A stretch of DNA of 64,000 bases from an uncultured candidate division Zixibacteria bacterium (lineage in GTDB: Bacteria; Zixibacteria; MSB-5A5; GN15; FEB-12). The notes below the pieces were generated by a model. The model was not told the DNA's origin. It was given only the letters and a program-made list of their open reading frames with translations, and did not search any database. Below, one piece after another: positions 42,663 through 61,435 of this stretch (positions are counted from its first letter, which is position 1; every line of letters begins with the position of its first letter). Made by a program: the position numbers and the translations under genes. The stretch lies in contig CAVPPI010000004.1 of NCBI GenBank assembly GCA_963707365.1, positions 981,469 to 1,045,468 on the forward strand. Direction: 5' to 3'.

Positions 42663-42752
42663 AAAACGGCTCAAACAATGACATTCCCCCCTTATGTAGC
42701 AGATAGGGCTTGTGATTTTTTTCACTATTTTACCGTAGGAAAAGGAGGTCCA

Positions 42753-44134: not shown

Positions 44135-44151
44135 TCAAGGAGGAGGAGAAT

Positions 44152-45343: not shown

Positions 45344-45496
45344 GTCACACCGGTTTGTTCAAAAAATCAACAAGGGCGGCTTTCACAAGGCCGCCCTTTC
45401 AATTGTCGCACAGCAACTGCGGCATATTCCAGATAATTTCACTACTCATGTCCATTGAATGCGAAAATTTGTCACCCGGTTGCCGATACTATCTGT

Positions 45497-46285
45497 ATGC
45501 GCTACGTTTGCTGGGTCACAGCCACACTGTTCGCATTGGCGTTCGCCTTAACTGCGAAATTCACATTTCACGCTGACAGCGTTTCTTCGGGCGGGCGATT
45601 CGATGATCCTCATCGTGATATTCCGTGCACCGACTGTCATCCCCTGAGAGCCGACGTAAGCTCAGGCGGTCCGGTCAACCGGCAGTTCCGGCAACAGTGT
45701 GAGAAATGTCACGATCCCGGCGCCGCCAATCTGACAGGCATTCCTCTGAATTTCCACAACTCGCGCGAACGGTCATGTTCCGAATGCCACAGCTTTCACA
45801 ACACGGAACAGATATCTCTGGCAAACTCGAGTTTCCTGGTAAGCTTTGAAAACAGTTTCCAGAGGGGACAATGCTATTGTTGCCACGGACCGGGGGAAAA
45901 CATCAAGAGCCTGTCGCCGGGACACAGGGCCGCAGCGGCCATTTTCCATTCGGACTTCGCTGTTCTGGGAAGGCTGAGTTCTTCGCAAACGTGCTTGATA
46001 TGTCATTCCGATGCCAGTGCTCTTCCGGTCGGCGAAATTTCACAATACGCCAAAGGCGCCCCGCGTTTCAAAGAACACGGTAGTCACCCTGTCGGCGTGG
46101 AAGTCATTCCCGGCACCGGCAAACCCGGTAACGCCATCATCGATCCGATTGGCCACAAGATCCAACTTTTCAACAATCGCATGGAATGCTCAAGTTGCCA
46201 CTCACTCTCGGCGGGACACACGCCCTTCAGGCTGGTCTACCCCACCAGAAATGAGTTATGCCGGGCCTGTCATAAAATCGATTAG
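45497..46285 (+). CDS. secreted heptaheme c-type cytochrome
   Basis: The leader is MRYVCWVTATLFALAFALTA (the ORF track gives an alternative TTG at 45455). There are seven CxxCH motifs in ~235 mature residues: CTDCH, CEKCH, CSECH, CYCCH, CLICH, CSSCH and CRACH. Confidence 0.75.
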   Translation: MRYVCWVTATLFALAFALTAKFTFHADSVSSGGRFDDPHRDIPCTDCHPLRADVSSGGPVNRQFRQQCEKCHDPGAANLTGIPLNFHNSRERSCSECHSFHNTEQISLANSSFLVSFENSFQRGQCYCCHGPGENIKSLSPGHRAAAAIFHSDFAVLGRLSSSQTCLICHSDASALPVGEISQYAKGAPRFKEHGSHPVGVEVIPGTGKPGNAIIDPIGHKIQLFNNRMECSSCHSLSAGHTPFRLVYPTRNELCRACHKID

Positions 46286-46380: not shown

Positions 46381-47436
46381 TTAACCACCTTGTACGTGAC
46401 ACTGATTACATACTTCCTGATAACGAGTGCCGTCGCCGTTCTCGCCCCAGTTGGCCGCACCGGTCGCCCAGATAATGCCGAAAGCATTCTGGTTACCGTG
46501 GGCTTTGTGGCAAGACATACAGCTCGGGGTCAGATCAGCAGGAGCGCCGGTCCATGGCGTTCCCCAGTCACCCCAGTCACCGGTCGCACTCATCACCTGA
46601 ACGCGGTAGGCGCGTCCGGAGAACGTAGCGGTGCTCGAGTGACCACCCGTTATGGCGCCAATATTGGCGTCTGCGGTCGGGTGACGATACCATTCGGTCT
46701 GGGTCGGAGCAGCGGCGTTTCTCATGTTAGCGTCGGCTGACGTACCATGGAAATCCGTGTGACAGCCCTGACACCAGGCACCGTAAGCCGAGCCGGTCGG
46801 ATCCGGTTCGTTGAAGAACACGTTCTGAATGTCATAGTGGTCGCCACCAAAGGCGGCCGACGCTTCATAGATGTCCTTCGTCAGGTCATTGGTTCCAACA
46901 GCGTAGCTCAGACCGGGGCCTGATACTCCGCCTGCGGCATAAAGCACATTGCGATAGGGATTGTTGCCCGCGGCAACGAATCCACCATAACCGTGTTGCT
47001 GGTGACAGTCAACGCAACTGAGACCATCGGCGTTGGCGAAAGTACCCCCCGGGGCAACATCCGTCGAACCGAGAGTGTGACCCGTCGCATCGAAATACGG
47101 GGCCGTGTTATCACGGTTCAGGGCGCCTGCCTGGCGGCCGTTCGTCGGAACATTACCGCCATTGGCAGCCAGCACGTCAGGAGCGAATGTCTGATTGTCG
47201 TGACAGGCTAAACAGAGATTGTTTATCTCGTCACGCAACAGAAAATGATACGGACCTGAAGCACCGAGGCCGACCGTGATGCCGGTACCATCGGAATTGT
47301 ACCCGTGAGTCTGACTGTAGTGCATCACGTGGCACTCAGCACAGTTGAGCGATGCACCCGTATGGTAATCGCCGGCAATTGCGCTGGAGGCAAGAAGCGC
47401 GAACGCCGCGATTCCTACCAGGATGAGTTTCTTCAT
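46381..47436 (-). CDS. OmcS-family hexaheme c-type cytochrome (candidate nanowire-forming cytochrome)
   Basis: GGAGG sits 8 nt before the ATG at 47436. The leader is MKKLILVGIAAFALLASSAIA. There are six CxxCH motifs. Motif-for-motif, the order matches my recollection of G. sulfurreducens OmcS: YHTGASLNCAECHVMHYS, LL..x7..CLACH, GH...APGGTF...CVDCHQQHG, AWCQGCHTDFH...RHP, CMSCHKAHG and a C-terminal CNQCH. Confidence 0.75.
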   Translation of the reverse strand: MKKLILVGIAAFALLASSAIAGDYHTGASLNCAECHVMHYSQTHGYNSDGTGITVGLGASGPYHFLLRDEINNLCLACHDNQTFAPDVLAANGGNVPTNGRQAGALNRDNTAPYFDATGHTLGSTDVAPGGTFANADGLSCVDCHQQHGYGGFVAAGNNPYRNVLYAAGGVSGPGLSYAVGTNDLTKDIYEASAAFGGDHYDIQNVFFNEPDPTGSAYGAWCQGCHTDFHGTSADANMRNAAAPTQTEWYRHPTADANIGAITGGHSSTATFSGRAYRVQVMSATGDWGDWGTPWTGAPADLTPSCMSCHKAHGNQNAFGIIWATGAANWGENGDGTRYQEVCNQCHVQGG

Positions 47437-47560
47437 GAGTTTGACCTCCATACCTTTGCTCTTAAAAAGTTAAACTCGTTGAATTATGGTTAATAAGGCT
47501 TAGTTCTGAAAAATGAGAATACGTTTCAGGACGACCAAACTCCCCGAAAGGAGCACAGCA

Positions 47561-47833: not shown

Positions 47834-48860
47834 TCATTTGGTCTCAAAACGCTGGATTCGACTGCCTATTCGCTCTACGATAAAGAAAACTGAGTCATTT
47901 GCCGCCGCGATATCGGCCGGATATCGGAATTCACCGGGGCTAATACCATATCCCCCAACTATTTCACGAAATGTCCCGGAGCTGTCAAAGACTTTTACCA
48001 CCTGCCGAAGGCCATCGGCGACCCAAATGGCTGGCCGCCCTTCCCTATCGGACATAATCTCTATTCCGGACGGAAACGACACGTCGCCGCGCTCAATCTG
48101 ATGACCGCTGAATCCATATAGAAAAGCACCATTGGTATCGAATACTTTGATTGCCGGTTCAGCGTACAGGTCTGTCACGAACAAACGATCCCGCCAGATC
48201 TGAATTCCCAGAGGAGTATTGAACTCAGAAGGTCCCCCGCCTTTTTGACCGATAGTCCTTTTCGAGTTCAAAATACTCATCAAGCACCATTATGGTGACA
48301 ATATCGCCGGTCGTTATGACGTAGAGATTGTCCTCGCTGTCGATAGCGAGGCTCTGCGGCTTTATCGTCAGGGAGGTGTCGCCATAAAGCGTGTTCAGGT
48401 ATACTTTTTGAAGCGATTTGCCCCTGAAATCGAGCACATCCAGATAATCCGCAAGGTTGTCGGAGAGGATTATCTCCCCCAGCTTGTTTACTGCCAGATC
48501 GCGTGGTTCTCCTTTGATCAGTCGACCGGACCGCTGCTCGATAACAAAGTGCTCGAACGAGTATTTGGGGTTGAGCAACTTATCGTATATGACCACCCGG
48601 CCATTGCCGGCATCGGTGACAAAAAGTTCATCGGCCGATTTATCGAAAAAGAGGGAACCGGGGCTGCGAAGGTTCTTCTGCCAACCGTCATCAAAGGCAA
48701 TTGCGGTAATATTGAAGTCGAGGGCCGGTGGTGTGTCCTGTGCTGCAACCGCCACAGGAGATGCCAGACAAAGAAGCAACGAGGCAATAACCACGGGCGC
48801 GACTTTGCGAATCTCAGTTCTTTGAAAACAGATCGGAGAGTTCACTAACGGCATCCTCAA
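47834..48860 (-). CDS. secreted NHL-repeat beta-propeller protein, one apparent frameshift near 48230-48280
   Basis: The signal peptide is VVIASLLLCLASPVAVAAQD. Repeated NHL-type blades include LFVTDAGNGRVVIYD, LAVNKLGEIILSD and LFVTDLYAEPAIKVFD. ORFs 48225-48860 and 47834-48283 are consecutive parts of one gene. Confidence 0.7.
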
Positions 48861-49404
48861 CCATCTTTTTGGCCAGGTTATCGGCCGACCTCACGGCGCC
48901 GATACCGAAGGCAATTTCCCCCTTGTCGCCACGACCGTTGGAATTGGCCACCCATACGGTTTTTTTCGTAGCACAATCGATCAGGCGGCAATTGAACGCA
49001 ACTTCGGGCACCCGTCCCAAAAAGCTGTTATCATATTCTTCATACTCAATCGCAGCTCCTGTCAACAGAAGATCAACACCGAGACTGGCAGCGAGGCTGT
49101 CAATCTGAGCATCGGAAAGCAGCGACGAAGATCTGATTCTGAATTGTCTGAGGCTTTCGTACAATTGGCCGAATTCCACAGTCTCAAACCGGCTCTGTCC
49201 GGCCATGGCGTTCAGAAAATAATCGGTTAGTTTTTCGGCAGCCTTTTCCCTTCCGCTAAGATTCTCAAACGGCAAAACGGCTACTCGAGATGTGGAAGGC
49301 AACTGACTGTCGATGCGTCTTTTGGCCGTCAGATTTGACGCACATCCGGTCAGCATCAATATTATCAGTCCTATCGGAATTGTCCGTGTCAGAATATGGA
49401 ACAT
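48814..49404 (-). CDS. lipoprotein (LpoB/TolB-N-like, VAVLPFENLSG motif)
   Basis: The ATG at 49404 opens MFHILTRTIPIGLIILMLTGCAS, which contains a lipobox L-T-G-C. The VAVLPFENLSGREKAAEKLTDYF motif resembles small periplasmic-face OM lipoproteins. Confidence 0.6.
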   Translation of the reverse strand: MFHILTRTIPIGLIILMLTGCASNLTAKRRIDSQLPSTSRVAVLPFENLSGREKAAEKLTDYFLNAMAGQSRFETVEFGQLYESLRQFRIRSSSLLSDAQIDSLAASLGVDLLLTGAAIEYEEYDNSFLGRVPEVAFNCRLIDCATKKTVWVANSNGRGDKGEIAFGIGAVRSADNLAKKMVEDAVSELSDLFSKN

Positions 49405-49408
49405 ACCG

Positions 49409-50014
49409 TTACCTCGATACTCTGCCGAATGATTCGGCCACTTCATGACACACTTTCGTAGTCATCGCGCCCAGCGTATGGGTTTCCCCGAAGGAAAAGA
49501 CAGGAAACTTGGGACCACCCTTGCGGGTGGTTTCATAGCTCCAGACTACCCGGCCGGTCTGGCAGTCGATAAAACGGACAATCACCGCCACCAGAGGGAA
49601 TTCGTCCTGACCTGAACGCACCATCGTGAAGTCTTTAACGGCGCCCACGAATATGCCCTCGACTTGCGCCTGTTCACCGATAGCCATAGCCTGTTCGCTG
49701 GTCAGTTCATCCAGCGCGTTTACCATATCCTGTTTGACTACCGCCTTAACCACCTTCTCGACATCACCCATGTTGGCCACGGAAACCGTATTGAGCATAA
49801 GCAATTCGGTCACGAAGCTGGAGGTCACTTTGTCGGAAGCATTCTTGTCGGTGGTCAGATTTGAAAACGGCACGACCGCGACGCGCGAATAGAAGCCAAA
49901 ATCGGCCTCGTCGTTGACATACATCCGGTTGCTGCCGCACGATGCGAGCGTTAACAGAAAACCGAAAGCAAGAAAGAGCTTGAGCTTTAACATAGCATTA
50001 CCTGTTTTTTTCAT
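49409..50014 (-). CDS. lipoprotein, paralog-like to the downstream one (VAVVPFSNLT motif; DUF799-like)
   Basis: The lipobox is LTLASCGS. It shares the motif VAVVPFSNLTTDKNASDKVTSSF and the GxxIEG/LLTGAV-type pattern with the 48814-49404 protein. It overlaps the barrel gene stop by 4 nt. Confidence 0.6.
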   Translation of the reverse strand: MKKTGNAMLKLKLFLAFGFLLTLASCGSNRMYVNDEADFGFYSRVAVVPFSNLTTDKNASDKVTSSFVTELLMLNTVSVANMGDVEKVVKAVVKQDMVNALDELTSEQAMAIGEQAQVEGIFVGAVKDFTMVRSGQDEFPLVAVIVRFIDCQTGRVVWSYETTRKGGPKFPVFSFGETHTLGAMTTKVCHEVAESFGRVSR

Positions 50015-51745
50015 ATCTGTATACTTAACACACTTTGAATGGATTCGTTTACTATTTTTTCTCCCAGGGCATCCCGGGTACGGCTGTGCAGGTAGGCCAC
50101 CGAGAGCGTGACTTTCTGCGAAAGATACATCAGGATCTGCCCATTGACCGTACGCGGCCGGGTCTCAATCGATTCGAACTCACCGTCTTCTCCTACAAAA
50201 ATATCCCGCGTCTGTTTCTGTTCGTTGACCGAAAGATATAAATTAAAAGCCCGGCGAAAAGAATAACTGATATAGCCGGTGGCGGAACTCAGGCTGGACC
50301 TGACGGTACTCTTATAATTGCTGTGAATATAGGTGGCGTTCATATTAAGATTGGAGCGGGGCGTAAAAGTCAACCCGGCGTTGTAGTTTTCCGAAAAGGA
50401 CCTGTCGAATCTCAGTCTGTCGCCGATATAGAGCGCCGTTATTCTGAACCTGCCTTCGAGACGCCGCGTGAAATTCACCCTGGTGTCAAGCGAGCGGGTC
50501 AACTGATACCGCCGCTGCTCGTCAACCGGGTCACTATCGTGAGTCAGTGATATGTCTATAAAAGTCTTGATATACTTTCTCGGAAACAGATTCAACGATG
50601 CTTGATATGTATCAAGAATGTAGTCACCGTCGTTGACCGTGGCTATTACCGCTCCCGATGTATCCCTGATCGACACCAGCCTCGTGGACTGCTGGAAAAT
50701 CGTACGATTGAAAGTCAGACGGGTATCCACGCCGCTGCGGAAGTACCGGGTCAGCACCGCCCCGAGATTCGCATATTCCACTATATTATTGTCGCCGTTC
50801 TGACGATTGTTCTGATACCCCTTCCCCGCCTGAAAGCTGAGATAACCGGTCGGCGTGAATTCAGCCACGCCGGACATCGTCTGATTATCGTTCTCAATCA
50901 CCGTCTGCTGCTGTTCCGCCTCAAGAAACCGACCGGAGTAACTCAGATTGACAGAGACTTTATCGATTGCGTTTAGAAGCAACAGCGAGTTTACAGAGTG
51001 AGTGAACGAAGTCTGGTTCAGTATCGAGTGGCTCTCACGGCGCGTATCGTAATAGTTGTAAGTAGCACTGGCGTAGCCGAGACCGACAAGGTTACGATTG
51101 AATCCCACAGTCCCCGAGTAAGTACGGGTGGTGACATCTCTTCCCCCCGGAAGGTTACTGACTTGCCTCAGATTATTGTAGTTGGCCCTGAAAGTCAGCG
51201 GGTCAAGAGAATACGAGCTTTCCAAAACGACGTTACGATTGAAAGCATCAAATTTGGGCTCGAGTCTCTTTGTCGAAATTACTGAAATGTGAATAAACGA
51301 GATTGAAAGTCGGATAGTCGGTATAAGCGAGCTGGGCCGTTATTCGCCAGTCACGATAGTAAACATCGACAAACTCCGTAACGGCAGCTGTATAACTGCG
51401 CCGTTTATAGGGCGAGTAACGGGCGTTGAAGGCATAACCATAGCTCTTGAGATCAAGATAATAGACCGGCTGAAACTCATGATAGTTGGCAAACGATTGC
51501 TCTCGCCGCTGAAGATTGGCCGTCAGACGGATATGGTTCTTATAAAACAGGACATCTTCATAGTTGATGATAGCCGTCTCCCGCGTAATATCATCCTCAT
51601 CGGCTTCGCCGTTTTGCTGTTTGATATGTTCGTACGAAAGAGAAGCGTTCCCGAACAATCGCCCGGCCACAGCGGTATCGCACCATGGACCAACCAGTGC
51701 TGACAGAGAGAATAAAATCGCAAATACAGCGAAGCGATACATCAA
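50011..51745 (-). CDS. large outer-membrane beta-barrel protein (~575 aa), one apparent frameshift near 51225-51250
   Basis: The signal peptide is MMYRFAVFAILFSLSALVGPW. Alternating aromatic/polar strands rich in Y, N, S, T and R run throughout. ORF 51248-51745 ends ...SNFDKE, and the next frame continues RLEPKFDAFNRNVVLESSYSLDP (ORF 50011-51225). No CxxCH is present. Confidence 0.55.
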
Positions 51746-53904
51746 TAGTCTTCTCCCGTAGGATGATGACAGTTAGCGTAACAGGTACTGGTCGTAGCAT
51801 CAACTTCCTCCCAGCCGCTTATGTGACCACCGAAGATGAATGCGTGCGACGGCGCCCCGGCAGTCGGGGAACAGGGAGGAAAGATGTAATTGGAGCCGTG
51901 AATATTCCCGATTCCGGATCCGTTGTCACAGGCAGGATCCTGGTCGTCATCATAGCGCCCGGCATGACAACCGCGGCAGGACTGACCGTTGCGTCCGGCT
52001 CCCCCCGGATCGGTATGGGCGCGACGGTCGTGGTCTGCGAATCGCGATACATTCTCCGAATTGAACACATAGTAGTTTTCATCATGACAGCGCACACAGA
52101 ACTGCCTCTGGGCGCTCGGGAACAGCGTCCCGATAACAGGCTCGCGAAAATACGTCTCGACATACAACATGCCGCTGTTATCACTGCCGTGCCCCGTCGT
52201 TTCATGACAGTCAAAGCAGCTTATCACGTCATGCAAAGCCGTCTGGTTGAACGGCGGCAACATCGTGGCCGTGAAGTTGTTCACCGAACCCGGCACTGTA
52301 TAGGGATTGTTCCCCTGTGCCCGAACCGGGTGATAGGAAGAATTCAGAGGATCGAACTGGGTATATACATCGATAACTGTTGCCGCCGGGTCAGAGAAAG
52401 GCGCCAGCGATGATCCCCCCGGCACCTGTGCTTCAACCGACATAGCGCCGTTGCCGTCGTGACACTTCAGACAGAAAGAATTCTGCACCTCCACCACCCA
52501 ACTTTCAAGAAAGGCGCTGTTCAAATCGCGCGTGAAACTGCTGAAACCGGTAAGGGCCTGACCGTTATCGGGGTCTCTCAGTTCCACAAAACCGTTGGCA
52601 TGATAAGCACCATTGATATCGCCGCTGAACGCGATTCCTTCCATATGGCACACACCGCAGTCATTATTGGTGACCGTGTCGGTCACACCGATAGCATTGA
52701 CATGGTGAGCGTTCAGACCAAACTCACCGAGGATGGCTCGACGCGTACCCCGGGCGGTAGCGTGACACGCTACACAGGAGCCGCCGATACCGGGATTATG
52801 AACGTTATTGGCTGTGGGCGTTGAGTAATCGCGGCCGTGGCACTCGTAGCAATGTTCGGTCGACGCAGCCGTGTGTTCCGTAACAGAGGCCGGCAAAGGC
52901 GGAAGGGTGAGCCCCTCGATAGCATCGGCCTGGGCGACACCATCAGATGACGGATGACAGCCAAAACAGAAGCGCCGGACCTGCGCGTTATCATTACGGA
53001 TGTCTGTCAGCCCGTACCAGCCGGGCCTTTGATCGCTCAGGAGGTAGTTGTTTCCCCCCAACCCGCCGTAACCAATAGAACCGTGCGGGTTGTGACAATC
53101 ATAGCACGGCAGACGCATCCCCGATGTCACATATCCCCCGCCCGTGGTAATTCCGTGCCCGCTACTGGCGTTGGGGTTTATTGATCTGTCATAATAATAG
53201 GCTATCGTGCGTGAGGTATCATCCATACCGACCGGTCCGTCAACACGGTGGCATTCCAGACAGAGGGCATAATTCTCCGCCTCCAGCCCAAGCTGCGAAC
53301 CGGTGATACCGCTATAGGTCGTATCGAGCATATCGTGTGGAGCGACTGTACCGTGCGGATTGTGACAGTTGTCGCAGGAACCGTAACCGAACCAATCTTT
53401 GACAGGCATGTCCTGGTCGGCATAGTGCGGTGAGAAAAGACTGTTCTCCCAGACGACCCGTCCCGGCCACCTCACCCGGTTCTCCAGGCCAGGCAACCGC
53501 GTGCCGCCGCTGTTGAATTCAAAATAACCCGGATCCGATGAACCGATTGGCAGCCGGTCGGATTCCTGAGCCGGATAACCCGCTGTGCCCCCCGTCGGCT
53601 GGTCAGCGTGACAACCGCCTGAAGAAGCAGAAAAACATAGCTCGTTGGAATTGTAAGTAAACAAGCCGTATGGGAACGTATTGTCAGGATCATGGCTCAC
53701 ATGACACTGGGCGCAACTCCCCTGAGGATAATCCGGCGTTCGCAGCACGCCGTTATCAACCGAACCGTGAGGAGATTGCCTATACTGACTGTCATCGGCG
53801 CCGACCGACGCCGCAAACCAGAAAAGTATAGCGCCAAGGGCAACAATCGCCCGGGCGAGGCGCATCGATGAAATGTATCTTATTTGTTGTGACATTGCTG
53901 ACAC
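51742..53904 (-). CDS. secreted multiheme c-type cytochrome, 12 canonical CxxCH plus two atypical motifs
   Basis: The leader is MRLARAIVALGAILFWFAASVGA (an alternative start is at 53865). By direct reading it has 12 CxxCH, a CYANCH (CX3CH) near the C-terminus and NELCFSASSGGCH (CX7CH). The last sits where the hexaheme paralog has NELCLSCH. Confidence 0.8.
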   Translation of the reverse strand: MSAMSQQIRYISSMRLARAIVALGAILFWFAASVGADDSQYRQSPHGSVDNGVLRTPDYPQGSCAQCHVSHDPDNTFPYGLFTYNSNELCFSASSGGCHADQPTGGTAGYPAQESDRLPIGSSDPGYFEFNSGGTRLPGLENRVRWPGRVVWENSLFSPHYADQDMPVKDWFGYGSCDNCHNPHGTVAPHDMLDTTYSGITGSQLGLEAENYALCLECHRVDGPVGMDDTSRTIAYYYDRSINPNASSGHGITTGGGYVTSGMRLPCYDCHNPHGSIGYGGLGGNNYLLSDQRPGWYGLTDIRNDNAQVRRFCFGCHPSSDGVAQADAIEGLTLPPLPASVTEHTAASTEHCYECHGRDYSTPTANNVHNPGIGGSCVACHATARGTRRAILGEFGLNAHHVNAIGVTDTVTNNDCGVCHMEGIAFSGDINGAYHANGFVELRDPDNGQALTGFSSFTRDLNSAFLESWVVEVQNSFCLKCHDGNGAMSVEAQVPGGSSLAPFSDPAATVIDVYTQFDPLNSSYHPVRAQGNNPYTVPGSVNNFTATMLPPFNQTALHDVISCFDCHETTGHGSDNSGMLYVETYFREPVIGTLFPSAQRQFCVRCHDENYYVFNSENVSRFADHDRRAHTDPGGAGRNGQSCRGCHAGRYDDDQDPACDNGSGIGNIHGSNYIFPPCSPTAGAPSHAFIFGGHISGWEEVDATTSTCYANCHHPTGEDY

Positions 53905-54842
53905 CCCGCGATATAATCTAAATCACCTTCAATATATGACCACAGCAACGATTTCTCATCCGAACCGCCGTGGGCCTTGTGACAACTCCCGCAGAATATC
54001 CGATTGGATTCCGCCGGCTGACGCGAGCTAATAAAATCACTTGCCGTTGGTACTTCGAACGGTAACCTGATAATACCATTGGCATCATCAGCGAACCCTT
54101 CCCCCGTTCCGGAAATCCAGTGGGGAACATCCGTATGGCCATCGACTGGAAACTCGTTAATCGCCACATCCACCGGATGGCTATTGAAGTGGGCCGGTGG
54201 TGACGCCACACTATTTGTCTCGAGCTGATTGTGGCAGGAAACGCACCAGGCCGAGTAGGCCTGTCTGTATCCGATGTTGTCCCTGCTGTACGCCGTCGCC
54301 GATCCGCCGGCAGTCGGCGGAATGTCCGGAGAAAATTCAGTGAAGAGATCGCTGCCCTCTTCCAGAACAAGGGAGTCACCCACACCGGCCGGATCGAAAA
54401 GCAAGTTGCGGTAGTTGCCGTTACCGTGCGGAGCGTGACAACTGGCGCAGTTTAACTCTACGAACTGAGCTTCCACTTGAAGGGGCACGATACTCCCCAG
54501 CGCCAGGTTGTGGCCCATCGGATTATCAATGCCGATGATATCAAAATATCCTCCGGCACTCTGGCCGGACAGGGCCGCATCGTACATCTGCACCGGCCGC
54601 ATGATATCCGGCGCTGTCGGATCGGTACCATCATGGCACGACAGGCACAATTCGTTGACAGTATTTTTCAGAAGTAAAGTCGAGAACGGACCGCCGGGTA
54701 GCGGCTCTCCTTCTTTGGAGGCGTGCTGAATGTGACAATCCTGACAGCGTAGATTCGGTTCAACGTGCCACTGCCCGCTCCGTACGCCGGAAGCGATAAA
54801 AAATAATGTAAGCAAAGTCATTGTTCGAGTCATCACAGTCAC
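53880..54842 (-). CDS. OmcS-family-like hexaheme c-type cytochrome, operon-internal paralog
   Basis: The leader is MTLLTLFFIASGV. The six CxxCH motifs follow the same order and spacing logic as the 46381-47436 protein: CQDCHIQH, LLL..x7..CLSCHDG, GHNL...CASCHAPHGNGNYRNLL, AWCVSCH...HP, CGSCHKAHG and a C-terminal CQQCHNK. Confidence 0.7.
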   Translation of the reverse strand: MTVMTRTMTLLTLFFIASGVRSGQWHVEPNLRCQDCHIQHASKEGEPLPGGPFSTLLLKNTVNELCLSCHDGTDPTAPDIMRPVQMYDAALSGQSAGGYFDIIGIDNPMGHNLALGSIVPLQVEAQFVELNCASCHAPHGNGNYRNLLFDPAGVGDSLVLEEGSDLFTEFSPDIPPTAGGSATAYSRDNIGYRQAYSAWCVSCHNQLETNSVASPPAHFNSHPVDVAINEFPVDGHTDVPHWISGTGEGFADDANGIIRLPFEVPTASDFISSRQPAESNRIFCGSCHKAHGGSDEKSLLWSYIEGDLDYIAGCQQCHNK

Positions 54843-54844
54843 CT

Positions 54845-55801
54845 CTATTGCAGCGTGTAGAACAGCAATCTGCCGGTCTCCTCGAGCACAGCCATCCGAT
54901 TGTCTATTGTCCCGAGCATGGCCACCGGACTAATCGTGCTATTTTCGAAAGTCAGTACCGACAGTTGGGTGCCGGTCTGGTCAAAAATGCGAAACTGGCT
55001 GTTGGTATCATCAGCCACCCAGACGAATCCGCGAGTGTCAACCGCCACCGCAGCCGCCTCCCATCCTCTCTGCTCCGATGGCTGATTCCACCCTCCCTGA
55101 TAAAGAAATTTCCCATCGATCGCAAATACCTGCATCGGAAAGTTCTTCTGGTCGGCCACTATCAGTTTGCCGGGCGCCGCGGCAGTCATATACGCCGGGG
55201 CAAGCAACTTACCCTTGCCGGAACCGTCGCGAACAACAATCTCCTTAAATTCCCATTGCTGATCGAACCGGTAGATACAACCTGCATGGCGGTCCAGGAT
55301 AAGATAACTCCCGGTCGGTTCACGGACAATCTGGTCGATAGAGAATTTATCAGAAATACCGTTCAGGTCCGCCACTGTATCAATCACACCGGTATTGTAT
55401 TCATTAACGGCAAATATGATTGTCTTGTTCGCCAACGTGTAAAGAAGACGGGAGTCGGATTCGAAGCAAATAGAGCGAGGTTGTTCAAGTCTTACCTGCT
55501 CTCCCACCGTCCAGAGAAACCGGCCCTCCAAATCTACAATTACAATACGATTTGTGCTGAGGTCACTGATGGCAATCTTTTCGCCGTTCGGAGAGACAGT
55601 CATCGCCGATGGACGGTCGAGTTGGTAACGACCGCCTATCAAAATATGTTGACTCTCAATAGCCTGGGCAAGAGCCACGGAAACGTTTGCCGTGACGACT
55701 ATACCGGCTACGAGTAGCCAGAGGCAGGAGAAATAAGTTGCTATCTTGTACGCAGTGCTCTCCCTGGCCCTTAATGAGACACCGTGTGACAAATGATGCA
55801 C
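54845..55801 (-). CDS. secreted NHL-repeat beta-propeller protein
   Basis: A hydrophobic leader (CLWLLVAGIVVTANVSVALA) is followed by repeated blades: IAISDLSTNRIVIVDLEGRF, YLILDRHAGCIYRFD, LIVADQKNFPMQVFAIDGKF and VWVADDTNSQFRIFD. The start is uncertain because it overlaps the upstream gene end. Confidence 0.7.
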   Translation of the reverse strand: MHHLSHGVSLRARESTAYKIATYFSCLWLLVAGIVVTANVSVALAQAIESQHILIGGRYQLDRPSAMTVSPNGEKIAISDLSTNRIVIVDLEGRFLWTVGEQVRLEQPRSICFESDSRLLYTLANKTIIFAVNEYNTGVIDTVADLNGISDKFSIDQIVREPTGSYLILDRHAGCIYRFDQQWEFKEIVVRDGSGKGKLLAPAYMTAAAPGKLIVADQKNFPMQVFAIDGKFLYQGGWNQPSEQRGWEAAAVAVDTRGFVWVADDTNSQFRIFDQTGTQLSVLTFENSTISPVAMLGTIDNRMAVLEETGRLLFYTLQ

Positions 55802-58800
55802 AGCTTTCTATCTTTTTCAGCCACCAGTATTGCCGCGTAGTCAGACGAGTGTGGAGAGTGGCAACCGACACAGTTGAGAGGCTCCTTGGTCCGCGGGTCT
55901 GTCACACCAACACCCATCGGGTGATAGTGCGTCTCAACAGCACCCTCGTGACAGGTCAGGCAAAGCTCCATTATGTCGGATGTAGCCAGTAAACCGGCAT
56001 TGGTACTCGTATGTGGTTGATGGCAGTTGCCGCAGTCTTCAAAAGCCACGGCGTGTTGATTCTTACCTTTAAATTCCGAACCCTTATGACACGAGAGGCA
56101 CATCGACGGACCCTCTTTGAGAAGAAGACTCGAACCGTACCCGACGTGCGGACCATGACATTGAACACAGCCGTCCGCTTTGGTCAATGGAGCATGTACA
56201 ACAGCATTGGCGGTGGTCTCCAGAAAATCCTCGTGACATGCGAAACACATCTGGTTAACCGGAGCCACGAACTCATGGGCACTCATTCCATCGTGACACG
56301 AAGTGCATTCCCCATCGGCAAACGGAGCGTGCATGTCGGGCAGCAGAAGTCCTTTCGAACCGGCCGGACCGGCGTGAGCCGCGTGGCAGTTCTGGCAATC
56401 GACGCCTTCAAGGCTGAACCCTTTGTGCGCCGTACGCAGGTCGCGCGACGACAGATCGTGACACTGCCCGCAAAGCTCCATCTTGGAGTCAGTCAGCAGA
56501 GCCGTCTGATTTCCGGCATGAGCCACGTGGCAGGCGCCGCAATCTCCATCGGCCACCGGCGCATGCGGAGCACCCTCGGTGATCTGGCGGTTTATATCTT
56601 CGTGACAGGATATACAGAAACTCTCTGCCGGTTTGGTAGTCAGGGCCGGATAGGCCGACGAGTGAGGCTTGTGGCACTCAAGACACTGGCCTTCCTCGAA
56701 CGGGCGATGGTTGACAGCCATCTTCTGCTGGTCTTTTATATCTTCGTGACAGGACACACAGAGCAAACTCCCGTCAAGCCTCAGCAGACCCTTGTAGTCG
56801 GCAGCGTGCAAACTGTGGCAGGAACTGCACTCTTCACCGGCAAACGGAGCATGCTGGTGTTCCAATTCAGCCGATTCCGCCACCGTCTCGTGACACGCAC
56901 CGCAGAGATCCATGGTCGAAGCTACGAGAGCAACTTTGTTATCAGCGCCCTTCTCGTGGCAATCCTCACAACCACCATCGGCAAACGGCGGATGAAGCAT
57001 ATTTCTTACCAGCTTGTCCTGCTCGCTGACGTGCGGATTATGACATTCCAGACAGTCAGCCGTCGTTATATCATACCCCCCGTGAACTGTCGTCAGGGCA
57101 TCATCCACATCATGACACGTTACACAAAGATCCGGAGCGCCGGCAATCACAAAGCCGACATTGTCCGAACCGTGAGCGGCATGGCAGGCATCACATTCGC
57201 CCTGCGCTACCGGAGCGTGGGCATTCTGCTTGCGGAAAGCCTCCTTTAACTCATCGTGACAGGTGTAGCATAAATCGGCGGAGATGCCCGTTAGCTTGGG
57301 AAGCTGACCTACCATCAGTCCACCGACGTTAATTTTGGTCATCCTACCGGTGACAAGCTTGGCTTCATTACCGCCGTGAGGATTGTGACAACCGGCGCAA
57401 TCACTTTCAGCAGCCGGCGTATGAACAAATTCTTTTTCAAGGTCAAGACCTTCATAGTCGTGGCAGGATGCACACAGGTCGTTGTTTCGCGCCGTCAACA
57501 GGTGCAGATTGTCTGCACTGTAGTGCGGCTGATGGCAACCCTGGCAATCATCCACAGCCGGAGCATGAGGATTGGCCATGTTGACTCGCTTATTGATATC
57601 AACGTGGCAGGCAAGACACATCGCAGCACCTTCACCGCGGACCAGATGCGGCGTGTCGCTGTAGTGCGGCAAATGGCAGTCGGAACACTCGCCGGTCAGG
57701 TATGGCTGATGCCCCGAGGAGGCATTCAACGCCTCGCGGTCAGGTTCGTGGCATTCCCCGCACAACTGCGCCGACGGAGCTTTCAGAAGCCCCTCGGGAG
57801 TCCCCTCGTGAGGCTTGTGGCAGCCGAGACAGTCATCGAGGGCGGCATGAACGTTCGAGGCAGCATCGCGCGCAGCGGCAAAATCTTTATGACAACCAAG
57901 ACACAGCGAAGCATCGTCGGCCTTCGCCAACGAAGCATTATCAGAACCGTGTACCTCGTGACACCCACTGCATTCACCGGTCACTACCGGCATATGCGGC
58001 CTCTGACCACCTCCGGTCAATACCGCGTCGTGGCACTCACCGCACAGAGTTCGCTGGTCCGCCTTGAGAAGATTGCCGAACCGCGATGAGTGCGCAGTGT
58101 GGCAATTGTCGCAATTGTCAGCCTCGACAGCGGGATGAGGATGCGATTTGGAGATATTGTCAACGATACCATCATGACAGGCCGAACACAGTTCACCCAC
58201 CGATATTCCCTCTTCAAAAGCTACTTTTCCATCGGCATCAGGAAGAGAGTGACAGGTCTCGCACTCACCCGAAGCAAACGGCGCATGAGCATCATCGGCG
58301 AGCAAACCTTTTGTATTCGAGGCATGGGCGGCATGGCAATCACTGCAAGGCAGGTCTCCCGCATTGCGTTCTTTGTGTACGCTCACCCAGGTTTCATCGG
58401 ATTGATCATGGCAGGAACCGCACAGACTGTTGATTTCGGCCGTGAGAAGGCCGGGGTAACTGCTGTTGTGAGAAGTATGGCAGGTCAGGCACTCCATCTG
58501 GTCGTACGGGGCGTGGATGAATTCTTTCGCGCGGGCGGCATCCATATTGTCCTGGTGGCACATTAAACAGAAATGCTCCACCGGCGCATCGGCGGCCGGC
58601 TCCCAGAGCATACCGGTTTCGTTGGAACCGTGCGGATTATGGCAATCCCAGCATTTGCCGGAGGCAACCGGGAAGTGTACGCTTCCCTGGCTGTACTTTT
58701 CTTTGAGGTCGGCGTGACAACTATAACACAATTCGGACGTAACGTCCTGAAGGATCAGCTTCTGAGCAAAGCCGTGGCGTTTGTGACAACTCTCGCAGTT

Positions 58801-58968
58801 CTCGTCTTTGATCGGCTTGTGCGCAAATTTCACAGCCGAATAAACCTGCTTTTCTTTCTGGTGACAGTCGTAACATGTCTTTGCCGCAAACGCAGACGTG
58901 GCAAAAGCCAACGTGATTACAATGGTAAAGCTGATCGCTGTTTTGTATGTGACAAGTGTCCGCCGCAC
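55771..58968 (-). CDS. giant secreted multiheme c-type cytochrome with 42 CxxCH motifs (paired-CXXCH repeat architecture)
   Basis: The leader is ISFTIVITLAFATSAFA. I counted 42 CxxCH in 1065 aa by hand, about one per 25 residues. They are arranged as ~21 repeats of LCxxCH-(~15-20 aa with HxP)-CxxCHxxH. Confidence 0.9.
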   Translation of the reverse strand: MRRTLVTYKTAISFTIVITLAFATSAFAAKTCYDCHQKEKQVYSAVKFAHKPIKDENCESCHKRHGFAQKLILQDVTSELCYSCHADLKEKYSQGSVHFPVASGKCWDCHNPHGSNETGMLWEPAADAPVEHFCLMCHQDNMDAARAKEFIHAPYDQMECLTCHTSHNSSYPGLLTAEINSLCGSCHDQSDETWVSVHKERNAGDLPCSDCHAAHASNTKGLLADDAHAPFASGECETCHSLPDADGKVAFEEGISVGELCSACHDGIVDNISKSHPHPAVEADNCDNCHTAHSSRFGNLLKADQRTLCGECHDAVLTGGGQRPHMPVVTGECSGCHEVHGSDNASLAKADDASLCLGCHKDFAAARDAASNVHAALDDCLGCHKPHEGTPEGLLKAPSAQLCGECHEPDREALNASSGHQPYLTGECSDCHLPHYSDTPHLVRGEGAAMCLACHVDINKRVNMANPHAPAVDDCQGCHQPHYSADNLHLLTARNNDLCASCHDYEGLDLEKEFVHTPAAESDCAGCHNPHGGNEAKLVTGRMTKINVGGLMVGQLPKLTGISADLCYTCHDELKEAFRKQNAHAPVAQGECDACHAAHGSDNVGFVIAGAPDLCVTCHDVDDALTTVHGGYDITTADCLECHNPHVSEQDKLVRNMLHPPFADGGCEDCHEKGADNKVALVASTMDLCGACHETVAESAELEHQHAPFAGEECSSCHSLHAADYKGLLRLDGSLLCVSCHEDIKDQQKMAVNHRPFEEGQCLECHKPHSSAYPALTTKPAESFCISCHEDINRQITEGAPHAPVADGDCGACHVAHAGNQTALLTDSKMELCGQCHDLSSRDLRTAHKGFSLEGVDCQNCHAAHAGPAGSKGLLLPDMHAPFADGECTSCHDGMSAHEFVAPVNQMCFACHEDFLETTANAVVHAPLTKADGCVQCHGPHVGYGSSLLLKEGPSMCLSCHKGSEFKGKNQHAVAFEDCGNCHQPHTSTNAGLLATSDIMELCLTCHEGAVETHYHPMGVGVTDPRTKEPLNCVGCHSPHSSDYAAILVAEKDRKLCIICHTVSH

Positions 58969-58977
58969 AACTACCTC

Positions 58978-59436
58978 TCACTTTCTGGCTGGCGCCGTGA
59001 TGTATTTCTCACTCACCTTGAAGTCGACAAGCTTGAAAGCCAGAAGATCATCACGCTTGAAATGAGGTGACGTCAAGACGTAAAAACCCCAGCTCTCCTG
59101 CTTAATCTCACCTTCAAACGAAACCCTGACCCTCACCGCCGGATTGTACAAAGTATCAGACATCTGCAAAGCTTCACCCGTCTGCGTTATTCCCAGATGG
59201 GGATTAAAGCCTATGACAGTTGCCTCATACTCCTCCTCACCAATATAAAACGGTTGCTCCATTCCGACAGTATCAAATTGCACAAATTCGGGATAAAGCC
59301 TGTGGCGGGTCTCAATAATAAAATACTCTACTTCCGAGCTTACATCGGTGGAATCGGCCTCTTCGGCACAAACTTGAGAGGATGACATGAAGATCGGAAG
59401 GATGCCAAAAATTAACGGTGCGATATACTTATTCAT
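58978..59436 (-). CDS. small secreted protein of unknown function, first gene of the cytochrome operon
   Basis: The 152-aa ORF has the signal peptide MNKYIAPLIFGILPIFMSSSQVCA and no heme motif. I recognise no family. It ends 9 nt before the 42-heme gene. Confidence 0.55.
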   Translation of the reverse strand: MNKYIAPLIFGILPIFMSSSQVCAEEADSTDVSSEVEYFIIETRHRLYPEFVQFDTVGMEQPFYIGEEEYEATVIGFNPHLGITQTGEALQMSDTLYNPAVRVRVSFEGEIKQESWGFYVLTSPHFKRDDLLAFKLVDFKVSEKYITAPARK

Positions 59437-59676: not shown

Positions 59677-61435
59677 TCACAGCATGAGCTGTCTGCTGGC
59701 CAGTTCCCGGTACAAAGTGGATGACTTCAGCAGGCCGTCGTGGGTCCCCTGGTCGACAATGCGCCCCTTATTCATCACCACAATCCGGTCAGCATGGCGG
59801 ACAGTGGCCAAACGATGCGCCACGATAATGGCCGTCTTTTCCTTGAGCAACTGGCTCAGCGCCTGCTGAATAAGCTCTTCAGATTTTGAGTCGAGAGATG
59901 AAGTAGCCTCGTCGAGCAAAATAACCGGCGGGTCTTTAAGCACGGCGCGGGCCAGACACAAGCGTTGTTTCTCGCCGCCTGAGACCGTGACACCCCTCTC
60001 GCCTATCTCTGTGTCATAGCCGTTCTTCTGACTAATGATGAAGTCATGGATATTCGCTATCCGCGCCGCCTTTTCTACAACATCCATTGCTGCCCCGGGG
60101 TCGGCATAAGCGATATTATCCCGGATTGACATCTTAAAAAGCAACGGATCCTGATCCACCAGACTCATCAAGCCGCGAAGGGCTTTGAGATCAATCTGCC
60201 TCAGGTCAACACCGTCGAGCGACACCGAACCGGAATCCGGGTCGAAAAAGCGCATAATCAGATTGATCAGTGTCGTCTTCCCTGCGCCCGACGGTCCCAC
60301 TATGGCTACGGTTTCGCCGGGATTGATGTCGAGCGACAGATTCTCGATACCAAAGTCGGAGTCGTGGTGACGATAATTAACATTGCTCAGTCTGATAGCA
60401 CCGCGCACATCCCGAAGCGCCACCGGCTGAGAAGCTTGTTCTACGGCAGGCGGAAGTTCAAGATACTCAAACACCCGGTTTACCGATGCCATCGCTATCT
60501 GAATATTTACGTTTATCGAAGCAAGGTCCTGCACCGGACCGTATAGATAGGCCAGAAGCATGTAAAATGCCATCAGGGCGCCAAGTTTCATCGTTCCAAC
60601 AGCAATCAGGTAAGTACCCCACGCCAGAACAATAACAGGTCCCAGCATATTGAGAAAGTAAACGAAATTGTTTGCCAGACGAGCTAACGATGGCGCTCTG
60701 TATATACAATCCCCTGAGGCGCACCAGAAGACCGGTCACTTTGTCGGTCTCCGCATCTTCCTGACCAAAAGCCCGAACAGTTCTTAGCCCCCCCAGTGAT
60801 TCCTGCAACCGTCCCTGAAAAGACGCTATTGTCTCCTGTAGCTTTCTGGCAATACCGTGAGCTTTAACGCCAAAGAAATTGGAGAAGACGATTGTCAACG
60901 GCACCGGAGCCAGGGCCACCAGCGTAAGTTTCCAATCCACGAAGAGCAAATAGACCAGGATACCAACCAGAAGGAGGATATTCTGAAGAAACCTGAGCAA
61001 AGTTGAGGCCAGAAGATTCTGGATTCTGGAGGCATCGGAAAGAATACGCGAGATAATTTCGCCCATCTGGTGCTGCTGATAGAAACGAAATGAAACCGTC
61101 TCAAGATGCGCAAACAACTCTATCCGTATGTCATTAATTAGTGACGCTCCGATCCTGGTAGCAAGGTAGTCCTGCGCCAGGGAGAATATGACTCTGAAAA
61201 AGTAAATACCAATCAGGACAATGCCGAAAAGCAGAGCCGGTGTCCAATCGATGCCGTTCGCGGCGGTCTCAACCAGATGCGGAATGAGGTCATCGATCAT
61301 GTACTGCACCGAGGCAGGCAAGGCCAGAGCCAGGGCAGCCAGAATCATCATGACCACAAAGGTTATTAGCTGAAGGTGCCAGTATGGCCTCAGATACCCC
61401 CAGAGACGTCTCCGTACGATTTTATCAGGAAGCAT
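59677..61435 (-). CDS. ABC transporter, fused permease/ATPase (MsbA/exporter type), one apparent frameshift near 60650-60700
   Basis: The N-terminal six-helix TMD is in ORF 60467-61435. The NBD in ORF 59677-60648 has Walker A GPSGAGKTT, signature VSGGEKQRL and Walker B ILLDEATS. Confidence 0.8.

Follow-up and report, generated by a model that had tools for sequence, protein, structure and literature searches.

The 42-heme c-type cytochrome encoded in the 64,000-nucleotide stretch of uncultured Zixibacteria DNA analysed here (the window) is, on the evidence of its heme-motif order and alignments, a head-to-tail fusion of two known cytochromes, one with 26 hemes and one with 16 (26 + 16 = 42). 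The pair is already known, the two cytochromes having been described since 2010-2017; the main new result is their fusion into one 42-heme chain. In G. bemidjiensis they are Gbem_1124, with 26 hemes and equivalent to GSU2495, for which 26 motifs were likewise counted, and the 16-heme Gbem_1125, listed as having "no match" in G. sulfurreducens (PMC2996986). A core operon of 26-heme cytochrome, 16-heme cytochrome, propeller and prolyl isomerase has been reported from SEEP-SRB1, Desulfuromonadales and others (PMC5539420), and in the omcS-companion operon GSU2495 and GSU2494 are called OscI and OscJ, names that date from 2025 (PMC13194489).

The gene starts with GTG, 5-6 nt downstream of a Shine-Dalgarno-like GAGAGG (coordinates are collected in Table 1). 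All 84 cysteines of the protein lie inside its 42 CxxCH motifs; a motif scan detected no Cx3-4CH or CxxCK variants in it, and 2000 residue shuffles gave a mean of 0.58 CxxCH motifs and a maximum of 4. The count of 42 motifs in 1065 residues made in an earlier, sequence-only reading is thus confirmed, with all of the cysteines in motifs and about 0.6 motifs expected by chance, as is the cleavable signal peptide without a lipobox: the N-terminus reads MRRTLVTYKTAISFTIVITLAFATSAFA, with AKTCYDCH directly beyond the predicted cleavage site, and has no Cys ahead of the first heme motif. The mature protein has 24.7 aa, or 2.64 kDa of polypeptide, per heme. Both of the profiles that had been suggested for checking do match, PF09699 (paired CXXCH; curated cut-off 20.6 bits) at 21 places with E 4.8e-197 and 637.9 bits and TIGR01905 over 20 stretches with 598 bits, which puts the protein among the paired-CXXCH cytochromes. 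The proposed construction from ~21 paired repeats holds in that PF09699 matches 21 times and a ~48-aa unit, LCxxCH..HxP..GxCxxCHxxH..LL, recurs, but the repetition is not perfectly 21-fold; single-heme "b" units at hemes 9, 26 and 35 shift the phase, the full motif grammar being (AB)4 b (AB)8 b (AB)4 b (AB)3 A. That the protein is a fusion of the known 26-heme and 16-heme cytochromes had been missed in that reading.

Table 1. Features of the 42-heme gene, its product and the surrounding cluster (window coordinates)
Feature	Position	Strand	Description
42-heme c-type cytochrome	55771..58968	-	1065 aa; stop codon 55771-55773; 42 CxxCH
Type-I signal peptide	58885..58968	-	aa 1-28, cut between AFA and AK; no lipobox
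OscI-like module	56944..58884	-	aa 29-675, hemes 1-26; grammar (AB)4 b (AB)8 b
Fusion junction	56932..56943	-	aa 676-679; in place of I C-terminus and J signal peptide
OscJ-like module	55774..56931	-	aa 680-1065, hemes 27-42; grammar (AB)4 b (AB)3 A
20-aa insertion, hemes 21-22	57271..57372	-	aa 533-566; modelled beta-hairpin
u1	58978..59436	-	152 aa, secreted or membrane-anchored all-beta; 9 nt upstream of 42-heme gene
NHL-repeat beta-propeller protein	54845..55801	-	318 aa; PF01436; conserved beside hexaheme gene
OmcS-like hexaheme cytochrome	53880..54842	-	320 aa, 6 CxxCH; sole PDB match OmcS 6ef8
12-heme cytochrome	51742..53904	-	720 aa; additionally one CX4CH
Probable outer-membrane beta-barrel	50011..51745	-	frameshift-split near 51255-51266
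LpoB-like lipoprotein	49409..50014	-	201 aa, lipobox LASC
CsgG/LpoB-like lipoprotein	48814..49446	-	210 aa, lipobox LTGC
Second NHL propeller	47834..48860	-	frameshift-split near 48234-48262
OmcS-like hexaheme cytochrome	46381..47451	-	356 aa; H44 aligns with OmcS His16

The grammar of hemes 1-26 is identical to that of the 26-heme (GSU2495/OscI type) family, which is recognized by 26 CxxCH motifs in the order (AB)4 b (AB)8 b at spacings of ~23-28 aa; order and spacing are both found here, in a chain that is not a stand-alone 26-heme protein, as it runs on for 16 further hemes. The comparison set was drawn from homologues in Desulfuromonadales, Thermodesulfobacteria and other MAGs. Its 26-heme members show 30-35% identity to the 42-heme protein (E 1e-85 to 1e-100), and for four of the five the best alignment runs from residue 1 (or 29) to 672-676; L077_I, the fifth, is shifted along the repeats, its best segment covering residues 168-894. 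The split 26-heme proteins stop 5 residues past the CxxCH of heme 26. The five 16-heme proteins align end to end with the remainder, from residue 674, 680 or 682 to 1061 or 1063, at 32-36% identity (E 1e-53 to 1e-65) and with a matching spacing profile, and this part has the 16 CxxCH motifs, the (AB)4 b plus 7 more, and the tail THP.G..DPR..C..CH...LC..CH that mark the OscJ, Gbem_1125 type. At the junction, hemes 26 and 27 are 22 aa apart, as in other neighbouring pairs, and residues 661-700, which span it, are modelled with a pLDDT of ~90.

A 16-heme gene comes after the 26-heme gene in all five split loci, with stop and start overlapping or closely abutting, and encodes a signal peptide of its own; a 16-heme gene directly after the 26-heme gene is seen in Desulfuromonadales, Thermodesulfobacteria and G. 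bemidjiensis. The lipobox is absent in 81 of 86 fused homologues and present in 26 of 47 split 26-heme proteins. Hemes 21 and 22 are separated by a median of 43 aa in the fused family versus 23 in the split one; the insertion between them is the sole low-confidence part of the model of the 42-heme protein (pLDDT < 50 at residues 546-553). In a neighbour-joining tree the fused forms are interspersed with the split ones.

Full-length homologues of the fused protein, 85 in all, have been found in more than 8 phyla, down to ~31% identity; the hosts of the family are mainly Zixibacteria, Ignavibacteriales, Krumholzibacteria, Eisenbacteria, Latescibacterota, Gemmatimonadota and Nitrospirota MAGs. 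In the alignment of these with the window protein (86 sequences) all 42 CxxCH are invariant columns, and ~42 distal His are invariant or nearly so, 40 of the non-motif His being conserved at >= 92% and two more at 84% and 74%; the alignment contains no conserved Met. Since the distal-His inventory matches the 42 hemes and no Met is conserved, the assignment as a paired-CXXCH, peptide-minimised, all bis-His cytochrome is supported. At least three genes in the window are split by frameshifts beside homopolymers, which marks the assembly or the genome as indel-prone and raises the question of whether the 42-heme ORF is itself an artefact -- a repeat expanded or collapsed in assembly, a chimera, or a pseudogenised gene. 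The chance of this appears negligible: the ORF is intact, its DNA holds no tandem repeat (direct repeats are <= 40 nt, at 60-86% identity), exactly 42 motifs are found in 91 independent homologues of 986-1100 aa, with every motif invariant in the 85 that were aligned, and an identical protein is already present in a public collection. The absence of long DNA repeats and the 42-motif homologues also answer the earlier concern that the repeat number might come from the assembly.

By its gene content, the surrounding cluster is of the osc type without the prolyl isomerase. OmcS-like hexahemes, NHL propellers, LpoB/CsgG-like lipoproteins and a large candidate channel protein, presumably the barrel, are all there, while the window and 74 of 75 fused loci lack an OscH-type prolyl isomerase; of the five split loci, four have Rotamase_2 proteins encoded immediately upstream and the fifth has them close by. 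Directly upstream of the 42-heme gene in 51 of 75 loci, L001 among them, lies u1, which has no similarity to the Rotamase_2 proteins, no Pfam or NCBIfam match and, for its AlphaFold2 model (pLDDT 83), no PDB match. The 320-aa hexaheme aligns with the d8 profile in hhalign (probability 99.9, E 7e-33); OmcS is the sole match (E 1.4e-7) of a 35-orthologue profile of the 356-aa hexaheme, the alignment starting at the mature N-terminus, and of the 58 orthologues of this hexaheme 55 have 6 CxxCH. Orthologues of the 12-heme cytochrome have ~380 aa and 6 hemes in most loci. The frameshifted barrel candidate has orthologues that are intact ORFs of 523-618 aa; the candidates have beta-signal-like C-terminal F/I ends and alternating hydrophobicity with z ~2, and one member matches Porin_4. 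A PDB search with the candidate gave no match; an outer-membrane barrel is its probable identity. The second NHL propeller has an intact 340-aa orthologue in L002, and the 201-aa LpoB-like lipoprotein has homologues among the lipoproteins of split 26+16 clusters.

The OmcS-like hexahemes, probable barrel, two LpoB/CsgG-like lipoproteins and NHL propellers adjoin the 42-heme gene in 39 of 41 well-flanked loci from many phyla, and the earlier statement that a barrel and OmcS-like components are encoded downstream has accordingly been borne out, the barrel as a probable one. L001, a complete genome, has only u1 with the 42-heme gene, the OmcS-like cluster not being nearby. No conserved inner-membrane partner was detected in the cluster. 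The 42-heme gene belongs to the core of a conserved operon, in which two OmcS-like hexahemes and a further multiheme cytochrome are also encoded.

The AlphaFold2 model of the 42-heme protein is a confident one, with a pLDDT of 88.1 and a pTM of 0.70. Its only solved relative is MtrA (PDB 6R2Q chain A), with a sequence E of 3.5e-13 and a Foldseek E of 1.8e-5 (probability 1.0); globally the two superpose poorly (TMt 0.46, rmsd 17.8 A), so that the chain may bend. Known heme wires have 7.8-10 A per heme; extrapolating from that spacing, the 42-heme chain would be ~33-42 nm long if straight. As this is well above the ~20 nm width of the periplasm (PMC7096707), the earlier idea of a chain long enough to bridge a periplasm is too simple.

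The 42-heme gene probably, though far from certainly, encodes a secreted, soluble, all bis-His wire, a single-chain version of the 26-heme plus 16-heme system. Its hemes would be arranged as in MtrA, with stacked and T-shaped pairs alternating along a single unbroken chain, which could conduct electrons over the periplasm, possibly into or through the barrel, and so link inner-membrane redox enzymes with the OmcS-like filament or surface module, the flow being either export or uptake; in organisms with split genes, both proteins would dock end to end into that chain of 42 hemes. Their natural fusion argues, as a Rosetta stone, that the pair works as one wire. Two published observations have been counted against the wire explanation: the split homologues were reported to be unexpressed during metal respiration (PMC5539420), and a GSU2494 mutant has a wild-type phenotype (PMC9248073). 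The poor superposition on MtrA, the lack of a conserved inner-membrane partner, the reduced locus of L001 and the "no match" for Gbem_1125 in G. sulfurreducens weigh on the same side. The mutant phenotype would fit a periplasmic electron store, or capacitor, whose 42 low-spin hemes would buffer electrons under intermittent external acceptors or donors, as would the very high heme load (2.64 kDa of polypeptide per heme) and the lack of an evident catalytic heme. Storage is nevertheless very unlikely, for it leaves unexplained the exact number and order of hemes across phyla, the fixed 26+16 partition and the close association, within one operon, with genes for the barrel, lipoproteins and OmcS-like proteins.

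An operon with a probable barrel and CsgG/LpoB-like lipoproteins could also serve to let the 42-heme protein out through the barrel to the cell surface, where it would be either a monomeric extracellular wire or a base or cap for the hexaheme filament; OscE/F/G have been proposed to be a secretion channel (PMC13194489), and a role as extracellular wires has been predicted for long single-chain cytochromes of Desulfuromonadia (PMC11492766). The split homologues, however, have been called periplasmic (PMC13194489, PMC5539420), roughly every second split 26-heme protein is a lipoprotein, and the only structural relative, MtrA, sits in its barrel facing the periplasm. Export of the protein itself therefore seems quite unlikely.

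A further ORF in the window (44189-45343) encodes a monoheme, beta-rich protein, the architecture of which we take to be Cyc2-like; it would suit a wire of the same kind running inward, from extracellular donors such as Fe(II), minerals or partner cells to the cell. The 26+16 pair has been proposed for electron uptake in the sulfate-reducing partners of ANME and was reported as unexpressed in metal reduction (PMC5539420), and the Zixibacteria genome RBG-1 has been argued to favour iron oxidation (PMC3903129). On the other side, bis-His chains are reversible, so that sequence cannot settle the direction, and electron export is what OmcS-type partners are best known for; inward flow is a serious possibility, if a somewhat unlikely one.

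The fact that the number of hemes is exactly 42 in phylum after phylum, in fused and in 26+16 form alike, might tentatively be seen as the mark of a rigid molecular ruler, a continuous chain of ~33-40 nm from the inner membrane through the whole periplasm into the barrel, plugged there straight into the base of the OmcS-like filament, with the 26-heme part set by the width of the periplasm and the 16-heme part by the passage of the barrel; this is doubtful, and on balance we think it unlikely. If true, it would be the electrical link that has been missing between cytochrome nanowires and the cell. How filament ends exchange electrons with the periplasm has been called unclear, and the 10-heme MtrA is too short for a periplasm of ~200 A (PMC7096707). 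The case for a single 42-heme chain lies in a natural fusion with an exact heme count in many uncultured phyla and an ordinary heme-heme junction; it predicts that the split proteins dock end to end, that the chain has a defined length and orientation in the envelope, and that filament function depends on the wire. The finding also adds Zixibacteria, and with them other phyla of the FCB group and of sediments, to the lineages with OmcS-type machinery; these phyla play a part in iron and carbon cycling.

Among known systems, the dodecahemes GSU1996 and GSU0592 are likewise long, heme-dense periplasmic "nanowire" cytochromes, and PF14522 matches the 42-heme protein weakly. Membership of the c7 polymers (GSU1996 type), which consist of tandem triheme c7 domains with one His/Met heme in each, was rejected, the grammar being two-heme rather than three-heme, with no conserved Met and no GSU1996 among the PDB sequence matches at E <= 1e-3; of the earlier comparison with doubled-CXXCH and c7-polymer cytochromes, the paired CXXCH (PF09699, TIGR01905) stands and the c7 membership falls. 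The MtrA and DmsE decahemes are also peptide-minimised bis-His wires working with a barrel, in the present case the probable product of a neighbouring gene, but MtrA has 10 hemes against 42, and insertion of the 42-heme protein in a barrel would be conjecture. It does not belong to that family (~10 hemes in ~300 aa, matched end to end), as TIGR03508 scores 402 bits, above its cut-off, from 8 partial stretches; the fold is related. Both neighbouring hexahemes resemble OmcS (PDB 6EF8) in having 6 hemes and in the alignment of a His16 equivalent and of the mature N-terminus, though identity is low and these putative filament proteins have 320-356 aa versus 407. From the 26+16 pair of the osc and SEEP-SRB1 clusters the 42-heme protein differs in being one polypeptide, in having no lipobox and in the 20-aa hairpin between hemes 21 and 22, and 74 of 75 fused loci have neither an OscH-type prolyl isomerase nor a ~500-aa protein within 10 kb, the small beta protein u1 preceding the gene instead. 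With that pair it shares heme-motif grammar and spacing for hemes 1-26 and 27-42, with collinear parts that are 30-36% identical (the best segment of one 26-heme protein in five being out of register), and a neighbourhood of NHL propellers, LpoB-like lipoproteins, OmcS-like hexahemes and a large ~520-700 aa protein, without a Pfam match, that may be a barrel.

The 42-heme cytochrome contains exactly 42 CxxCH motifs in its 1065 residues, as the sequence-only reading had counted; all 84 of its 84 cysteines lie inside these motifs, and neither CX3-4CH nor CxxCK variants were found in the protein. Since 2000 residue shuffles gave a mean of 0.58 CxxCH and a maximum of 4, the motif count is not an effect of composition. 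The cleavable signal peptide of that reading is likewise present (…SAFA/AKTCYDCH, type I), with no cysteine ahead of heme motif 1, and the mature protein has 24.7 aa, or 2.64 kDa, of polypeptide per heme. Both profiles named for checking the paired-CXXCH repeats match, Pfam PF09699 21 times (E 4.8e-197) and TIGR01905 20 times, in keeping with the proposed figure of about 21, though the array is not cleanly 21-fold. With the motifs defined here as A (LCxxCH), B (GxCxxCHxxH) and b (an extra HxPF…GxCxxCH without the trailing His), their order is (AB)4 b (AB)8 b (AB)4 b (AB)3 A.

That the open reading frame is an artefact, for instance of a misassembled repeat number, is essentially excluded. Tandem Repeats Finder detects no tandem array in the gene, whose direct DNA repeats (at most 40 nt, 60-86% identity) simply mirror the motif codons, and the protein search returned about 90 full-length homologues (986-1100 aa, identity down to about 31%), all with exactly 42 motifs save two, which have 40 and 41. 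Across an alignment of 86 sequences every one of the 42 CxxCH is invariant, 40 non-motif His are conserved at 92% or more and two others at 84% and 74%, and there is no conserved Met; motif-to-motif spacing is nearly constant across the family. One distal His per heme indicates an electron-transfer cytochrome in which all hemes are bis-His ligated and none is obviously catalytic. An identical protein is present in a public collection, where its cluster representative, from Candidatus Zixiibacteriota, carries no annotation beyond "cytochrome c3 family protein".

The protein search also revealed a second, shorter group, about 650-690 aa long and with exactly 26 motifs each, whose grammar is identical to that of motifs 1-26 in the window protein. 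In all five split loci examined, where the 26-heme protein has its own gene (a Desulfuromonadales MAG, a Thermodesulfobacteria MAG and three others), the gene directly following encodes a cytochrome of 390-419 aa that carries a signal peptide of its own and exactly 16 motifs, and the 26-heme stop and 16-heme start overlap or closely abut. For four of the five 26-heme proteins the best alignment is with window protein residues 1 (or 29) to 672-676; for the fifth, L077_I, it is shifted along the repeats to residues 168-894. The 16-heme proteins match residues 674/680/682 to 1061/1063 end to end, including the distinctive C-terminal tail, at 32-36% identity (E 1e-53 to 1e-65). It is near certain that the window protein is a fusion of a 26-heme and a 16-heme cytochrome: 42 = 26 + 16. 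At the junction, residues at about 676-679 take the place of the 26-heme protein's C-terminus and the 16-heme protein's signal peptide, hemes 26 and 27 are spaced by 22 aa, a normal inter-heme distance, and the AlphaFold2 pLDDT is about 90.

In a crude neighbour-joining tree of the common 26-heme region, 84 fused proteins form one large pure clade and another 7 fall within split clades. This pattern suggests that fusion or fission happened more than once; being drawn from a distance tree alone, it is weak evidence. A lipobox-like Cys follows the signal peptide in 26 of 47 stand-alone 26-heme proteins (P0096-P0156) vs 5 of 86 fused ones (P0001-P0092), so membrane anchoring differs between the two systems. 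The median spacing of hemes 21-22 is 43 aa in the fused family vs 23 aa in the split 26-heme family. The corresponding 20-residue insertion (residues 533-566 in the window protein) is characteristic of the fused family and is modelled as a beta-hairpin, which could be a docking or hinge element.

The AlphaFold2 model built on the 86-sequence alignment has a mean pLDDT of 88.1 and a pTM of 0.70, its sole low-confidence segment (residues 546-553) lying within that hairpin. Foldseek against the PDB matched only MtrA (6r2q_A; E 1.8e-5, probability 1.0, TMt 0.46), in agreement with the sequence search (E 3.5e-13). The c7-type polymers with which the protein had been compared from its sequence were not recovered: PDB searches gave no match to the GSU1996 type, the grammar is one of two-heme units, and no Met is conserved, so membership of that group was rejected. 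A modular, locally ligated heme chain is favoured because each AB pair contributes two His and each b unit one, because MtrA homology runs through the whole chain (8 stretches matching the MtrA/DmsE decaheme model TIGR03508), and because there is very little peptide per heme. Known heme wires advance 7.8-10 Å per heme. By analogy, a straight chain would measure 33-42 nm, of which the 26-heme part would take up 20-26 nm and the 16-heme part 12-16 nm. PMC7096707 gives a periplasmic width of about 20 nm, which the whole chain, if straight, would exceed; the chain may be bent, reach into the barrel or cross an envelope wider than that.

The 42-heme gene stands in an operon-like arrangement of overlapping or abutting genes (see table). 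A tblastn survey of the window neighbours against 75 loci encoding fused homologues found this operon conserved, with its gene order permuted between lineages, in MAGs of Zixibacteria, Ignavibacteriales, GN15, Nitrospirota/Thermodesulfovibrionia, Deltaproteobacteria including Geobacteraceae, Gemmatimonadota, Krumholzibacteria, Eisenbacteria, Latescibacterota, Glassbacteria and Anaeromyxobacter. Among loci with at least 7 kb on each side, 39 of 41 have the lipoprotein and hexaheme core. The gene u1 precedes the 42-heme gene in 51 of the 75, including L001, a complete genome (CP070674) where the rest of the cluster is missing nearby. No inner-membrane partner is conserved in the cluster.

Coordinates of the 42-heme cytochrome operon and other genes in the window, in minus-strand order
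Feature	Position	Strand	Remarks
MsbA-like ABC exporter	59677-61435		frame change at 60678-60680
u1	58978-59436	-	first in the operon
42-heme cytochrome	55771-58968	-	1065 aa; GTG start, GAGAGG Shine-Dalgarno-like site 5-6 nt upstream
Insertion, hemes 21-22	57271-57372	-	within the 42-heme gene
NHL propeller	54845-55801	-
Hexaheme cytochrome	53880-54842	-
12-heme cytochrome	51742-53904	-	720 aa
Probable barrel	50011-51745	-	frame change at 51255-51266
Two lipoproteins	49409-50014, 48814-49446	-
Second NHL propeller	47834-48860	-	frame change at 48234-48262
Second hexaheme cytochrome	46381-47451	-	last in the operon
7-heme cytochrome	45455-46285	+	flanks the 384-aa ORF
384-aa ORF	44189-45343	+	signal peptide, single CTTCH
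Multiheme ORF, weakly ExtKL/NapC-like	42678-44134	+	flanks the 384-aa ORF on the other side; looks split at about 43150
Three PPDK_N ORFs	35752-40706	-	consecutive, partly overlapping

The downstream barrel and OmcS-like components predicted by the sequence-only reading are encoded there, the barrel as a probable one. OmcS is the only PDB match of both hexaheme proteins, which are clear paralogues of one another (hhalign probability 99.9). A profile of 35 orthologues matches OmcS with E 1.4e-7, aligning from the mature N-terminus (OmcS FHSGG…CEGCHTMH), and pairs an invariant H44 with OmcS His16, the inter-subunit heme ligand of the filament. The 12-heme cytochrome resembles the OmcS-like profile only in part (hhalign probability 97); in the window and its closest relatives it has 12 CxxCH and one CX4CH, vs 6 hemes in about 380 aa for the orthologues at most other loci, so that a doubling or extension seems to have occurred in the window lineage. 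The putative outer-membrane barrel has intact orthologues of 523-618 aa, most ending in a beta-signal-like …x-F or Q-I, and a modest enrichment in alternating hydrophobicity (z about 2). Its Pfam matches are weak and confined to 2 of 28 members, one of them to Porin_4, with no robust match in the family; a PDB profile search found nothing, and BLASTP similarity to the 697-aa protein of a split cluster was not significant. The u1 product (152 aa) combines a hydrophobic helix at its N-terminus with an all-beta domain of 9 strands (AF2 pLDDT 83), and its residues H45, H80 and H125 are invariant or nearly so; it gave no family match and no fold match (best E 0.26). The idea that it is a truncated OscH, the prolyl isomerase of omcS-companion clusters, was rejected, there being no BLASTP similarity, family match or fold match.

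Just upstream of u1 and the 42-heme gene, an MsbA-like ABC exporter is also found in the closest complete genomes (L001 5040-9294, L002 7535-9301), with two radical-SAM/SPASM genes upstream of it in L001. These genes were left out of the system because they are conserved only in the 2-3 closest relatives. The exporter, barrel and second propeller genes are each split in the window into two overlapping or adjacent ORFs with short homopolymers alongside; each of their orthologues in L002 and two further homologue loci, L020 and L058, is one uninterrupted ORF. The pattern points to indel errors of long reads, or else to pseudogenes, in the source contig. The multiheme ORF that looks likewise split belongs to a plus-strand group (42678-46285) transcribed divergently from the 42-heme operon; this group may be a second electron-exchange module. 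In its 384-aa ORF, which has no Pfam or NCBIfam match, the single heme motif lies near the N-terminus and is followed by a long beta-rich region, an architecture that presumably resembles fused monoheme cytochrome-porins such as Cyc2. The three ORFs with PPDK_N (PEP-utilising enzyme, ATP-binding), one of them with an additional nucleotidyltransferase domain, may be paralogous genes or the pieces of one more frameshifted gene.

The window protein is rather likely to be a secreted bis-His heme conduit, a wire that would link inner-membrane redox enzymes to the barrel and the OmcS-like module; the existence of a fused form implies end-to-end docking of the 26-heme and 16-heme proteins where these are separate. 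Against a strong form of the wire claim stand the wild-type phenotype of a GSU2494 mutant (PMC9248073), the lack of a conserved inner-membrane partner, and the N-terminal lipoprotein character of about half of the split 26-heme proteins but not of the fused ones. Rival readings would make the protein a periplasmic capacitor, or a surface-exported wire or filament base. If a wire, it might carry electrons in either direction; uptake is suggested by the ANME-partner literature and by the reported absence of expression of homologues of the 26+16 pair during metal reduction (PMC5539420).

The pair itself has been described. The motif count is 26 in both GSU2495 and Gbem_1124, and 16 in Gbem_1125 next to the latter (PMC2996986, text and supplementary file 4); the heme count of GSU2494 was not found in paper supplements, and the 26-heme homology search returned Desulfuromonadales MAG names rather than a named G. 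sulfurreducens GSU2495 entry. Where PMC13194489 cites Shen et al. 2025, GSU2495 and GSU2494 are now named OscI and OscJ, of an omcS-companion operon. Skennerton et al., 2017 defined a core operon of 26-heme and 16-heme cytochromes, a six-bladed propeller and a prolyl isomerase in SEEP-SRB1, Desulfuromonadales, Ca. Desulfofervidus, Thermodesulfobacteria, Anaeromyxobacter and Desulfurivibrio, with "no known physiological function" (PMC5539420). The fusion supplies a concrete, testable hypothesis for this unexplained pair and for the wiring of OmcS-type filaments to the cell. Lipoproteins, propellers and hexahemes are common to split and fused clusters, whereas 74 of 75 fused loci lack two components of the split clusters, the prolyl isomerase and an approximately 500-aa protein. 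A literature search for "42-heme" gave only noise and no report of a fused form, Shen et al. 2025 lying outside its coverage. Previous work already covers the paired-CXXCH domain, the 26+16 pair and the osc-type cluster; relative to the literature so covered, the single-chain 42-heme form, its exact heme conservation across many uncultured phyla, the cluster variant with u1 and without the prolyl isomerase, and the modular motif grammar appear to be new.
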